This document shows positions 5,522 through 28,465 of a DNA stretch of 29,596 bases, piece by piece. The stretch is from a virus: the UHGV virus genome UHGV-0100673; one strand, written 5' to 3'. Below the pieces are notes generated by a model, which saw only the letters and a program-made list of their open reading frames with translations, ran no database searches and was not told where the DNA came from. Made by a program: the position numbers and the translations under genes. Within the stretch, counting starts at the first letter, position 1; each line of letters opens with the position of its first letter.

Positions 5522-5538
5522 ATTACCTTTCAGGTAAT
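5522..5538. promoter_or_regulatory. Palindromic operator-like site ATTACC-TTTCA-GGTAAT
   Basis: Perfect 6-bp inverted arms with 5-bp spacer, read directly; same core as four other sites in the window. Confidence 0.5.
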
Positions 5539-5613: not shown

Positions 5614-5871
5614 ATGCAGCAGTATCACTATCCACTGGAAGACGGATTTACCGAAAGGATTCACACGCCGGGAGGCGTCAGGTCACTGGTGGAGGGATCG
5701 CACTTGATGAAATTACTCCGGGATCTCGATAAGGATGGATTTAATGTCGATGGCCCACTTGCCGAACTGACTGCACTGATTAACTACGTCACCAGCTCAC
5801 AGATGTCTATGCAGGATCTGCAAACACATCTCGACTATTGTGCCGAACAATTACGAAAACAAACCAGATAA
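5614..5871 (+). CDS. Small SOS-controlled antirepressor-like protein (homologous to the C-terminal domain of the adjacent BRO-N protein)
   Basis: ATG 5614 with SD GGAG 6 nt upstream (the ORF track's 5596 start is TTG). GVRSLVEGSHLMKLLRDLDKDGFNVDGPLAELTALINYV...DLQTHLDY aligns by eye with SGVLGLTENSLLMNLLNQLQEDGHDVSGAAAELTTMFCYI...DIQTHAEY at the C-terminus of the 6187..6882 product. Confidence 0.65.
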   Translation: MQQYHYPLEDGFTERIHTPGGVRSLVEGSHLMKLLRDLDKDGFNVDGPLAELTALINYVTSSQMSMQDLQTHLDYCAEQLRKQTR

Positions 5872-5902
5872 GGTTTGCAATTACCAAATGGAGTGCTTAT
5901 AT

Positions 5903-5919
5903 TTACCTTTGCGGTAAAT
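5903..5919. promoter_or_regulatory. Palindromic operator-like site variant TTTACC-TTTGC-GGTAAA
   Basis: Same TTACC-N5-GGTAA core as the other four sites. Confidence 0.4.
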
Positions 5920-6009
5920 TTACATCGCACTCCTCTTGTGCCATAGTAATCGGGCACTGGCAAAATCCAGTGCCGGGATTGGCGTCCCGGATTACTAAAA
6001 GGTGCATTC

Positions 6010-6029
6010 ACCGCGCAAGCGGTTTTTTT
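6010..6029 (+). terminator. Short intrinsic terminator-like hairpin
   Basis: ACCGC-GCAA-GCGGT stem-loop followed by a 7-T run; downstream of the small gene and of a structured element at 5945..5996. Confidence 0.4.
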
Positions 6030-6186
6030 ATACGTATAGCACGGCCACATTCGTATTATGGTGGGCTGTGTGGGGGCACCGAAAGGTGCGCCGGGTCCTT
6101 TTAGCCGGTTACGCCAACCCTGCACAGCTCACCACCAACCGATTGGCGTCGGTAGTGGTGATTAACCAGACTAAAAGGTAACCACT

Positions 6187-6882
6187 ATGACAGCTACAAA
6201 AAGCACGTCCATTTTTTCTTTCGAATCCCAAGCCGATATACGAGTAATCGTCATTAATGGTGAGCCATGGTTTATCGCTTCAGATGTTTGTCGGGCTATA
6301 GGCATAGCAAACCATCGAGATGCTGTTCGAAAACTTGATGATGATGAGAAGGGCGTCGCTTCAACCGACACCCCTGGCGGTGAGCAAGAATCGATCATCA
6401 TCTCCGAGTCAGGCCTCTACACACTGATCCTCCGCTGCCGCGACGCAGTGACACCAGGCACTATCCCCTACCGCTTTCGTAAATGGGTTACAGGTGAGGT
6501 TCTTCCTCAGATCCGCTGCACCGGAAGTTACATTAAAAACTCGCTCCCGCAGGAAGAACGCATAAAGATGGTTGCCGACCAGGTAGCCAACGCCACAGCA
6601 TCAGCAGTGATGCAGGCGATGAAGATAGAGAACAAAACCTACAGTGCCCCACTGAAGCCCGGCTACCGCAGCCTGATTCATTCGCCGTCTGGTGTTCTCG
6701 GCCTGACGGAGAACTCACTGCTGATGAATCTGCTGAACCAGTTACAGGAAGACGGGCACGACGTATCGGGCGCGGCGGCGGAGCTGACCACCATGTTCTG
6801 CTACATCGTCGGTGTGAGCAAATGCCTGCGTGATATCCAGACGCACGCGGAGTACATCAACGACAAAGCAGGGTTCTTCTGA
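6187..6882 (+). CDS. BRO-N domain phage antirepressor
   Basis: N-terminal region ...IRVIVINGEPWFIASDVCRAIGI...ESGLYTLILRC...FRKWVTGEVLPQIR matches the BRO-N domain pattern; C-terminal about 60 aa homologous to the small upstream protein. Confidence 0.75.
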   Translation: MTATKSTSIFSFESQADIRVIVINGEPWFIASDVCRAIGIANHRDAVRKLDDDEKGVASTDTPGGEQESIIISESGLYTLILRCRDAVTPGTIPYRFRKWVTGEVLPQIRCTGSYIKNSLPQEERIKMVADQVANATASAVMQAMKIENKTYSAPLKPGYRSLIHSPSGVLGLTENSLLMNLLNQLQEDGHDVSGAAAELTTMFCYIVGVSKCLRDIQTHAEYINDKAGFF

Positions 6883-6953: not shown

Positions 6954-6970
6954 ATTACCTTAAAGGTAAA
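6954..6970. promoter_or_regulatory. Palindromic operator-like site ATTACC-TTAAA-GGTAAA
   Basis: TTACC-N5-GGTAA core about 45 nt upstream of the ATG at 7012. Confidence 0.45.
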
Positions 6971-7011: not shown

Positions 7012-7338
7012 ATGACAAAACTTGGATTCGTGATGAGAGGTCCGGTAAGAAGCGGAACTCATGCAAAGCGTAGCAAGAGTCGTATTTTTACTGGTAAGGT
7101 TGTAGCACGTAAATCAGCTATTGGCTCGTTCCATAGTGAAAATGCGGCATTGCGCCATATTTTTATCAGCACAAAGCCAAGAGCATCCGCTGATGTGCAT
7201 ACAATGACTATTCCTATCACAAAGAATATAAAGCGGATAAAAAAGCTCTCATCTGCAGAATCAAAAGAGATATCTTTCCGCCAGCTTAACTCATTAGAAA
7301 CGCATATGAAGGAAGAGGAATTCGATGTTTTTGAGTGA
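7012..7338 (+). CDS. Hypothetical basic protein, first gene of a two-gene overlapping module (candidate antitoxin/partner)
   Basis: SD GGAG 7 nt upstream of ATG; 108 aa, Lys/Arg-rich with acidic C-terminal tail EEEFDVFE; 3' end overlaps the next gene by 14 nt. Confidence 0.5.
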   Translation: MTKLGFVMRGPVRSGTHAKRSKSRIFTGKVVARKSAIGSFHSENAALRHIFISTKPRASADVHTMTIPITKNIKRIKKLSSAESKEISFRQLNSLETHMKEEEFDVFE

Positions 7339-7837
7339 GTATAGCGGGAAGGTTATACCTACTGGTGAGTTTAAAACTGATGACTTTCTGATTTCGCTAA
7401 AAGATGCTTTTAAACAACACTGGCGTCATGGTCATCATCCTGATCTGGGAAAAGATACTCTTTTTGAAAGACCAGACGAAGTATTAGGTTTCCATCTCAG
7501 AAAGGTTCATGTCAATATTGGTGAATATGCATCATATTCATACTCATGTACTGAACAGTGTTGGGATGAGTGGTCATATGGATTGATTGATGAACAAGGA
7601 AATTACAGGCCAAAACCAACCAGTAACGCATATCTCATATATGCAGTCAATGAAATAAGAGATGCAGCCTTACTAGCTTATTGGGACCCGCCCGCACACA
7701 CCAAAGCTAACGCAAAAGTTTGGATGGATTCCGTATTGAATTTCACAAAATTATTTCATGAACGAACGAATACAGCTCCACTTAGTAGAAATGTTTATCC
7801 GTGGGATTATTCGTACAAATCCAAAAAGCCTGCATAG
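7325..7837 (+). CDS. Candidate YafO-family toxin-like protein (tentative)
   Basis: Start ATG 7325 lies inside the upstream gene with SD AGGAAGAGGA ahead of it. Blocks LGKDTLFE...HLRKVHV and AYLIYAVNEIRDAALLAYWDPPAH resemble, from memory, the conserved FGRDALYD...VAHIHL and HLVYCQG...AWLLIAILKPEPH blocks of E. coli YafO. No search was run. Confidence 0.45.
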   Translation: MFLSEYSGKVIPTGEFKTDDFLISLKDAFKQHWRHGHHPDLGKDTLFERPDEVLGFHLRKVHVNIGEYASYSYSCTEQCWDEWSYGLIDEQGNYRPKPTSNAYLIYAVNEIRDAALLAYWDPPAHTKANAKVWMDSVLNFTKLFHERTNTAPLSRNVYPWDYSYKSKKPA

Positions 7838-27718: not shown

Positions 27719-28347
27719 TGATTGCCATCCTGACGTTCTTTGAGTCGCTTCCTGGCTGCTGCTATGCGATCAGCAATTGTCACATTCACATTAACATCCA
27801 GACGTTCTTTGAACGCGTTAACGTCGACGTGCTTACCGATGAGCTCGAGGTTTTTCACCTTGTCGGGCCATTTCACCTTCTTCAGGATATGCTCGACATC
27901 CTCAACAGAGAGATCCGCCTCGCCATTCTCTTTTTGCAGGGAAGCCTGGGTTGTCTTGATGGTAGCGATATCCATAGCACTGAGAGAGGTACGCCAGACC
28001 TTCGGCCATTCAGCGATCGGCTTCATCCCGCCGTCATCGTTCAGTATATCCAGCACGTCCATCTGGTCGATCTCCACCAGGCGCATGAGAACGTAATCAG
28101 CACTGACGCGCATTCGTTTGTTGCGCTCCTCCATCAACTCGGCAATCCGTTTTTGAATGCGTTCATCGCGCATCATGACACTGGCTTTAACTGCCGCTGT
28201 ATTTGGGGAGAATCCTGCGTTAATCGCTGCCTGAGTCTGGTTTTCAGGCGTTTTGATGTATGACTGGCAATAAGCCTCCTGCATTGCTGTTAGTGGCTTA
28301 AATTGCGTTGATTTGCGTTTATAGGTTTTAGGTTCAGCAGGCATCAT
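27715..28347 (-). CDS. Terminase small subunit
   Basis: Helix-turn-helix-like N-terminal region (LTAMQEAYCQSYIKTPENQTQAAINAGFSPNTAAV) and position immediately upstream of terL. Start set at ATG 28347 (MMPAEPK); the ORF-track start at 28425 is TTG and adds a low-complexity Thr/Ile/Val leader. Confidence 0.7.
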   Translation of the reverse strand: MMPAEPKTYKRKSTQFKPLTAMQEAYCQSYIKTPENQTQAAINAGFSPNTAAVKASVMMRDERIQKRIAELMEERNKRMRVSADYVLMRLVEIDQMDVLDILNDDGGMKPIAEWPKVWRTSLSAMDIATIKTTQASLQKENGEADLSVEDVEHILKKVKWPDKVKNLELIGKHVDVNAFKERLDVNVNVTIADRIAAARKRLKERQDGNQ

Positions 28348-28465
28348 AACCACCGTGGTAATAGTTACCGTTGTGGTAATAGTACCATGCAAAATAAAGC
28401 CGCCATAGTTGGCGGCAGTATTCAAAACCCGTCAAATTCATCATGCATAATCTACTCGTGACATG

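Follow-up and report, generated by a model that had tools for sequence, protein, structure and literature searches.

A known prophage RNA switch, IsrK plus a P1-type C4 antisense RNA, ahead of the antirepressor gene of a phiV10-like Escherichia coli prophage

Why should some 250 nucleotides of highly structured sequence separate two genes in a phage genome? The question arises in the virus genome UHGV-0100673, a stretch of 29,596 nucleotides called the window below. The spacer concerned (positions 5935-6186, plus strand) lies between an ORF at 5614-5871 and a 231-aa ORF at 6187-6882. An initial annotation, made from the sequence alone, had listed a series of hairpins there and proposed a prophage small RNA, an attenuator or a riboregulatory leader controlling read-through into the downstream BRO-N gene. 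The answer is a prophage RNA switch of a known kind: IsrK and a P1-type C4 antisense RNA occupy the spacer, placed before an antirepressor gene. The window represents an E. coli prophage, a podovirus of the phiV10/epsilon15-like group (Uetakevirus), with 98.8% identity to vB_EcoP_ZX5 and 95.7% to phiV10. The phiV10 record carries a single annotation in this region, a 'putative rho-independent terminator' at the position of the IsrK terminator.

All hairpins of the initial annotation were found at the coordinates given for them (Table 1). When positions 5905-6200 were folded as RNA, we obtained -120.4 kcal/mol versus -91.6 +/- 4.9 kcal/mol for dinucleotide-preserving shuffles (z -5.9), and none of 200 shuffles folded as well. 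On the plus strand, z was -4.9 for 5935-6032 and -5.9 for 6054-6139. An RNA from the minus strand was considered and rejected: the reverse complement of 6054-6139 folds worse (z -2.1), and all Rfam matches are on the plus strand. The leader structure is real, strand-specific and beyond chance.

The whole window was scanned against Rfam 15 at curated (gathering) thresholds, and separately in a permissive scan. Within the spacer, the IsrK small RNA and the C4 antisense RNA were both matched over their full length, so that the family assignment bears out the proposal of a regulatory RNA leader for the BRO-N gene. The minimum free energy (MFE) structure of the first element fits the IsrK family fold, which consists of two 5' hairpins, a linker and a Rho-independent terminator, and that of the second is identical to the Rfam C4 structure. 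The first three hairpins of the initial annotation, together with its terminator, fall in IsrK. A transcript of 60-100 nt ending near 6029 had been anticipated, and the isrK match, 76 nt long and ending in that very terminator, predicts just such an RNA. The initial annotation was right as to regulatory RNA but did not recognize that 6054-6139 belongs to an antisense RNA of its own, long known from other phages. In the permissive scan, positions 5941-5993 also matched c4-a1b1 (RF03163; a1 and b1 are targets of C4) with 45.1 bits and an E-value of 2e-10, that is, 1.6 bits short of the gathering score of 46.7. From upstream to downstream, the order is isrK, C4 and then the BRO-N antirepressor gene. 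No tRNA or tmRNA is present inside 5935-6186; the only tRNA of the window is a phage-borne tRNA-Arg (anticodon TCT) at 25011-25087 on the plus strand.

Table 1. Position of RNA elements, pairing sites, promoter-like and operator-like sites and genes in the window
Feature	Position	Strand	Basis and remarks
Small ORF, 85 aa	5614-5871	+	PHROG 450; copy of antirepressor C-domain
Distal promoter-like site, TTGCAA-17-TATATT	5875-5903	+	Consensus scan, 9/12 matches; predicted
Operator-like palindrome, TTACCTTTGCGGTAA	5903-5917		One of 7 TTACC-N5-GGTAA sites
TTACC-N5-GGTAA sites	5523-5537, 5903-5917, 6955-6969, 24674-24688, 25288-25302, 28347-28361, 28365-28379
Proximal promoter-like site, TTTACA-17-(TG)CATAGT	5919-5947	+	Consensus scan; likely PisrK
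Enclosing stem, AGTAATC/GATTACT	5945-5951/5990-5996	+	Sequence check; conservation lacking
Hairpin, GGCACTGG/CCAGTGCC	5953-5974	+	Sequence check
IsrK sRNA (RF01394)	5954-6029	+	77.6 bits, gathering score 50; model 1-77
IsrK hairpin 1	5954-5960/5967-5973	+	Both-side changes at 6/7 pairs
IsrK hairpin 2	5974-5978/5985-5989	+	100% paired
Hairpin, GGGA...TCCC	5975-5988	+	Sequence check
a1, UUGGCGU	5979-5985	+	Loop of IsrK hairpin 2; exact complement of a'
b1, CUAAAAGG	5995-6002	+	IsrK linker; exact complement of b'
IsrK intrinsic terminator, ACCGC-GCAA-GCGGU + U run	6010-6029	+	Scan and fold; sequence check
C4 antisense RNA (RF01695)	6054-6139	+	79.2 bits, gathering score 45; model 1-87
35-codon ORF in C4	6058-6165	+	Positional equivalent of Gifsy-1 orf45; conserved protein unlikely
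C4 basal stem, 17 bp	6059-6075/6118-6134	+	9 pairs with both-side changes
C4 hairpin 1, GCACC-GAAA-GGTGC	6076-6089	+	5/5 pairs with both-side changes; sequence check
C4 hairpin 2	6090-6109	+	Part of the RF01695 match
b', CCUUUUAG	6097-6104	+	Variable loop of C4 hairpin 2; specificity determinant
a', ACGCCAA	6111-6117	+	Single-stranded C4 junction; complementary to a1 and a2
Small hairpin, CCGA-UUGGCG-UCGG	6139-6152	+	Presents a2; 96% paired, 4/4 pairs with both-side changes
a2, UUGGCGU	6143-6149	+	Loop of small hairpin
b2, CUAAAAGG	6171-6178	+	Overlaps Shine-Dalgarno (AAGG); exact complement of b'
BRO-N antirepressor gene, 231 aa	6187-6882	+	Pfam Bro-N 2.3e-21; PHROG 130 'anti-repressor Ant' 9.8e-62

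What ties the two RNAs to each other and to the gene is a set of short complementary sites. Sites a1 and a2 are identical and are both the reverse complement of a' (7 nt), just as b1 and b2 are both the reverse complement of b' (8 nt). One copy of each target is thus found in IsrK, and the other downstream of C4, where the AAGG Shine-Dalgarno sequence inside b2 lies 8 nt before the ATG at 6187. The a2 hairpin contains GATTGGCGTC, a 10-nt direct repeat of positions 5977-5986. The spacing is 16 nt from a1 to b1 and 28 nt from a2 to b2.

To collect homologues, IMG/VR was searched for exact matches to a pattern taken from the conserved junction of C4, which returned 120 loci, about 70 of them true C4 loci. 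We aligned one representative per hairpin-2 loop with MAFFT, that is, 31 loop classes (alignment A1), in which the layout is kept from the -10 element of the IsrK promoter through to the start codon. In loci sampled for an Rfam search, C4 was present in 17 of 17 and isrK directly upstream in 13 of 17. Structural pairing across the 31 divergent homologues amounts to 87.7% of cells; shuffles reach 73.4% and slid controls 35-47%. Changes on both sides of a pair occur in 198 cells where 62 are expected. Covariation is seen in 26 pairs and is strong for hairpin 1 of IsrK, the basal stem and hairpin 1 of C4, and the hairpin that presents a2. The low score of the terminator helix (27.6% paired) is due to misalignment by MAFFT: when each sequence is folded singly, all 31 representatives form a GC hairpin with a T run immediately behind it, their stem sequences differing. 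The enclosing stem of the initial annotation does exist in the window but is not conserved, with 45% paired cells versus 37% in shuffles and 30-41% in slid controls. It is partly upstream of the likely 5' end of IsrK, and we rejected it as a functional element since covariation does not support it.

GC-rich palindromes may of course arise by chance in an intergenic spacer and have no function; intergenic hairpins are common, but nothing further speaks for this reading. Set against it are z-scores of about -5 to -6, two Rfam matches about 30 bits above threshold, covariation in 26 pairs, and the distribution of the module. Of 5426 complete E. coli genomes, 835 contain the isrK-C4 stretch, among them PK6 (NZ_CP042588) with 100% and APEC O1 (NC_008563) with 98.8% identity. 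The core of the stretch (window positions 5960-6162) recurs in about 280 phage records at 70-79% identity, including many Stx phages, the SfV 'immunity region', cdtI and APSE phages. Chance has practically no probability left as an explanation and is already refuted.

The pairing sites show a second layer of covariation. The C4 hairpin-2 loop has 31 different sequences among these related loci. An exact complement of the loop, at least 7 nt long, is found downstream, at the homologous place, in 87% of own pairings but in 2% of the non-own ones; upstream, within a narrow window, the corresponding figures are 52% and 1.4%. Duplex energies follow the same trend: b'-b1 averages -12.8 kcal/mol with the own partner versus -6.7 with others (own best in 20 of 31 classes), and b'-b2 -14.5 versus -8.0 kcal/mol (own best in 18 of 31). 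The b' loop and both of its targets change together over the 31 classes. Site a' exists in four versions (ACGCCAA, TCGCCAA, GTTCCAA and CTGTCAA), each with matching a1 and a2, and an exact a' complement both upstream and downstream is present in 69 of 70 loci. In most loci, b2 ends 7-12 nt ahead of the start codon. Duplexes with b1 are on average slightly weaker than those with b2, which fits a competitor that is effective when in excess. Family membership, folds, exact complementarities and covariation are in this sense direct observations.

These data also bear on a purely cis-acting leader or attenuator, in which the hairpins would set read-through and mRNA stability with no trans-acting small RNA involved. 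A conserved intrinsic terminator does lie inside the leader, and the whole leader folds stably. However, such a device leaves unexplained the covariation of a variable loop of 8-10 nt with two remote sites, of which one is a Shine-Dalgarno sequence. Moreover, in Salmonella both IsrK and STnc1160, an RNA of the size of C4, occur as discrete species (PMC4825925, PMC7067206), and P1 c4 is trans-acting according to the P1 record and a review (PMC12197685). We consider a cis-only leader highly improbable.

Several related loci depart from the basic layout. Two IMG/VR contigs, L070 (modules at about 4113 and 7372) and L040, each carry two isrK-C4 modules with differing b' loops; one phage can therefore hold two antirepressor switches of different specificity. 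Six others (L030, L037, L045, L053, L100 and L116) carry about 45 nt of additional sequence, starting CACCCATTTTTTGGGCG, downstream of the IsrK terminator and ahead of C4 (columns about 117-160 of alignment A1). Other RNA families were also encountered on related viral contigs: a type II hammerhead ribozyme at 13962-14024 of L067 (76.8 bits) and an int-alpA RNA at 5981-6049 of L022 (62.3 bits).

Upstream of the RNAs, a consensus scan predicts two tandem promoters. The -10 element of the proximal site aligns in A1 with the TATATT/TATTAT -10 elements of the homologues and precedes the start of the Rfam isrK match by 7 nt; the same distance separates the -10 from the published +1 in Gifsy-1 (numbering derived from PMC4825925). 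The -10 of the distal site adjoins the operator-like palindrome. This palindrome belongs to a set of TTACC-N5-GGTAA sites, of which the window has seven, versus 0.47 expected. At the sites starting at 5903, 6955 and 24674, a -10 hexamer spaced 17 nt from an upstream TTGCAA, TTGCAG or TTGACA shares sequence with the left half of the palindrome. Judged by its sequence, the set looks like dispersed operators for one repressor, comparable to the C1 operators of P1, and the tandem promoters with their palindrome are predicted to resemble the operator-controlled promoter and second downstream promoter of P1. We looked for a CI-like repressor beside the operator pair at 28347/28365 and rejected the candidate, as the ORF there encodes a small terminase subunit.

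The genes flanking the spacer are related to each other. Compared with the last 74 residues of the BRO-N antirepressor, the upstream 85-aa ORF shows 42% identity (E 7e-16), and it amounts to a free-standing antirepressor C-domain behind a predicted operator-bearing promoter of its own; it is possibly a modulator or a second antirepressor. Further downstream, two plus-strand ORFs (7012-7338 and 7325-7837) overlap by 14 nt behind a predicted operator-controlled promoter. Both belong to PHROGs of unknown function, and the second has a weak Pfam match to the YafO toxin (19.7 bits, below the cut-off of 25). This pair is possibly a toxin-antitoxin-like moron.

The closest functional precedent is the immI region of phages P1 and P7 (c4, icd-ant; RF01695, RF03163). 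Its order is the same as in the window: promoter(s) and operator, a1, b1, a hairpin with a T run, C4, a2 and b2. In the P1 record, a C1 operator and two promoters are followed by a1, b1, the 77-nt c4, and a2 and b2 just before icd. The fold of C4, the location of a' in the junction and of b' in the hairpin-2 loop, and the nature of the regulated gene, an antirepressor, are all shared. The spacing is nearly so, with 14 nt between a1 and b1 in P1 versus 16 here, and 29 nt between a2 and b2 versus 28 here. The 77-nt length is predicted here as well: the conserved edges of C4, AU|GG on the 5' side and ...CACCACC on the 3' side, align with the ends of the annotated 77-nt P1 c4, so that the mature C4 of the window would span 6060-6136. 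The pairing sequences themselves differ. In P1, a1 and a2 (UUGACAG) pair with the C4 junction (a', CUGUCAA), and b1 and b2 (GUUAGUG...) with the hairpin-2 loop (b', CACUAAC). Likewise, the upstream part of the P1 region scores only as c4-a1b1, whereas that of the window scores as isrK, and the host phage is P1 rather than a phiV10/epsilon15-like podovirus. Finally, no icd-like gene is present between C4 and the antirepressor gene in the window, where BRO-N starts 48 nt after the Rfam C4 match. Genes found 3' of the modules in other loci encode Bro-N, ORF6N+P22_AR_C, Rha or small proteins clustering with P1 icd. Since icd is also missing from family members that carry a Bro-N, ORF6N or Rha gene, we regard it as a feature of the P1 subtype that does not define the family.

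Taken together, the region is very probably the RNA control module of an antirepressor operon of the P1 immI or Gifsy-1 isrK-orf45-anrP kind. The following steps of processing, repression and de-repression are modelled on these homologous systems. The proximal promoter would drive transcription from about 5954, or the operator-controlled promoter from a point further upstream, and most transcripts would end at the terminator to give a 76-nt IsrK. Read-through transcripts would carry C4, to be processed as in P1; RNase P is reported to cut P1 C4 from its precursor (Hartmann et al. 1995). Sites a' and b' of C4 would then pair with a2 and b2. As b2 is the ribosome-binding site of the antirepressor gene, the antirepressor would remain untranslated and lysogeny would be kept. 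IsrK has the same sites in the form of a1 and b1 and so could pair with C4, or with the C4 segment of the mRNA; by competing for C4 it would relieve repression. The most likely reading is that C4 covers the ribosome-binding site of the antirepressor gene and that IsrK works against this. Accepting this, the initial annotation overlooked the main control step, which would be base pairing that hides the ribosome-binding site and not attenuation alone. Because C4 directly precedes BRO-N in the absence of icd, the Rho-dependent polarity step of P1 need not apply. In MFE folds, we also observed pairing of UAGUGGU (about 6153-6159) with ACCACUA (about 6182-6188), a local hairpin that would enclose b2 and the start codon; it may add to occlusion of the ribosome-binding site and could contribute on its own.

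The best studied relative is the isrK-orf45(STnc1160)-anrP-isrJ region of the Salmonella prophage Gifsy-1 (Hershko-Shalev et al. 2016, PMC4825925). On the minus strand of the Gifsy-1 locus (L123), we found isrK at 34240-34316 and C4 at 34131-34214, plus c4-a1b1, ahead of anrP, in the same order and with the same spacing as here. The a1 (UUGGCGU) and a' (ACGCCAA) sequences are identical to those of the window; a -10 directly before hairpin 1, read-through of the terminator and an antirepressor gene downstream are common to both. As Gifsy-1 carries a C4 match ahead of anrP, 'orf45' and 'STnc1160' correspond to C4. The two loci differ in the hairpin-2 loop, UCGGUGAU in Gifsy-1, and hence in b specificity, and in the antirepressor domains (ORF6N+P22_AR_C versus Bro-N). 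The antQ gene upstream of the Gifsy-1 module is replaced here by the small antirepressor-C-domain ORF and a tailspike gene, and the Rfam scan of the window revealed no isrJ match after the BRO-N gene.

Experiments in Gifsy-1 detected both IsrK and an RNA from the C4 region, STnc1160 being a processed RNA of roughly 80 nt, and identified the read-through product of the IsrK terminator as the antirepressor mRNA (PMC4825925). Both are discrete RNAs in Salmonella, highly expressed in lysogens (PMC7067206). The read-through mRNA is translationally silent; when IsrK is provided in trans, translation of AnrP increases more than 100-fold and the prophage is induced (PMC4825925). Two pairs of compensatory mutants, G28A/C162U and G31A/C159U, were described in that study. 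With +1 set at position 34316 of L123, the changes fall on a1 positions 3 and 6 and on a' positions 5 and 2, which makes these mutants direct evidence for the a1-a' duplex in Gifsy-1.

The Gifsy-1 authors nevertheless reached a different model, since they attribute activation to translation of orf45 and translational coupling, not to titration of free C4, and found that extra STnc1160 failed to counteract IsrK (PMC4825925). Transposed to the window, their model would have the 35-codon ORF translated: the leader would hide the ribosome-binding site of this upstream ORF (uORF), IsrK would open it in trans, and ribosomes ending the uORF would unmask the BRO-N start and re-initiate there, with a free C4 repressor being inessential. 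An ATG-initiated ORF does occupy the homologous place, its stop lying 21 nt before the BRO-N ATG, whereas the 45-codon uORF of Gifsy-1 overlaps the anrP start. AUG and stop-codon mutations in orf45 cut IsrK-dependent AnrP translation (PMC4825925). Yet among homologues the uORF varies in length (14, 15, 27, 33-38, 44-45, 59-64 or more than 100 codons), the spacing between its stop and the next start is not kept, and 6 of 31 classes lack the AUG. The third codon position shows no excess of variation (0.69, 0.90 and 0.76 bits at positions 1, 2 and 3), and substitutions in this region are compensatory in RNA stems. The AUG itself is part of an AUGG that is conserved at the 5' boundary of C4; as the annotated mature P1 c4 begins with the G of that AUG, processing would destroy the codon. 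Furthermore, the uORF region scores as C4 RNA in Gifsy-1 itself, and a review citing the Gifsy-1 study states that the nucleotide sequence of orf45 is conserved and its amino-acid sequence is not (PMC12197685). We rejected a conserved small protein inside C4 on account of the variable length, the AUG absent from 6 of 31 classes and the lack of a codon-position signal.

The uORF model as a whole seems to us rather unlikely for this locus, the masking of the ribosome-binding site by C4 being the preferred reading. The two are not mutually exclusive, and translation of 6058-6165 could matter for coupling, by analogy with the Gifsy-1 mutants. In about 13 of the 31 loop classes (for example L005, L008, L016, L037 and L075), the AUG at the C4 edge is in frame with the downstream gene without an intervening stop. 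This could be due to chance in a GC-rich structured RNA or reflect an N-terminally extended product.

Two further systems complete the comparison. The APSE phages of Hamiltonella share both the architecture and the class of regulated gene with the window, at about 70% nucleotide identity. The APSE-7 record (LR794149) lists an isrK sRNA, a C4 sRNA and a'/b' antisense regions, with a BRO-N gene 55 nt downstream; its a' and b' labels are swapped relative to the P1 convention. Rouil et al. 2020 reported both RNAs in all APSE phages and a match of a'/b' to the region upstream of the BRO gene (PMC7313666). In phage P4, the CI RNA with seqA and seqC (clan CL00128) is likewise a processed leader RNA that pairs with sites upstream and downstream of itself, and the Gifsy-1 authors noted that IsrK resembles P4 seqA (PMC4825925). 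The outcome in P4 is different, however, as pairing leads to premature transcription termination of replication genes, not to masking of an antirepressor ribosome-binding site. The best match of the window within this clan is C4, not P4 CI.

The finding is thus real and functional but already known: the families are curated, their combination is publicly annotated and the mechanism comes from P1 and Gifsy-1. In the searchable literature, IsrK and P1 c4 are described separately, with two vocabularies for one architecture. A text search of the Gifsy-1 paper (PMC4825925) returned no mention of phage P1, antisense RNA C4 or RNase P, and a 2025 review handles IsrK and P1 c4 as unrelated (PMC12197685), while Rfam, where c4-a1b1 overlaps isrK, and the APSE annotation already juxtapose the pieces. 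One may go further and propose that IsrK and P1 c4 are one mechanism. IsrK would be the terminated a1/b1 leader, acting as a C4-titrating decoy or anti-antisense RNA, 'orf45/STnc1160' would be C4, and the b loops would form a code of antirepressor immunity. We see the case for this proposal as evenly balanced.

For annotation, the stretch deserves the labels isrK and C4; among the matches listed in RefSeq E. coli genomes, none has an annotated feature under the isrK-C4 match. For the locus itself nothing is new, and the sole wider point is that IsrK and P1 c4 share an architecture. The module would set whether the antirepressor is made and, through it, whether the prophage stays silent or is induced; the homologous switch of Gifsy-1 governs prophage induction and a toxic antiterminator. 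If the proposal of a single mechanism is true, the b loop and its two covarying targets, in at least 31 classes, would constitute an immunity-specificity code across enterobacterial prophages.
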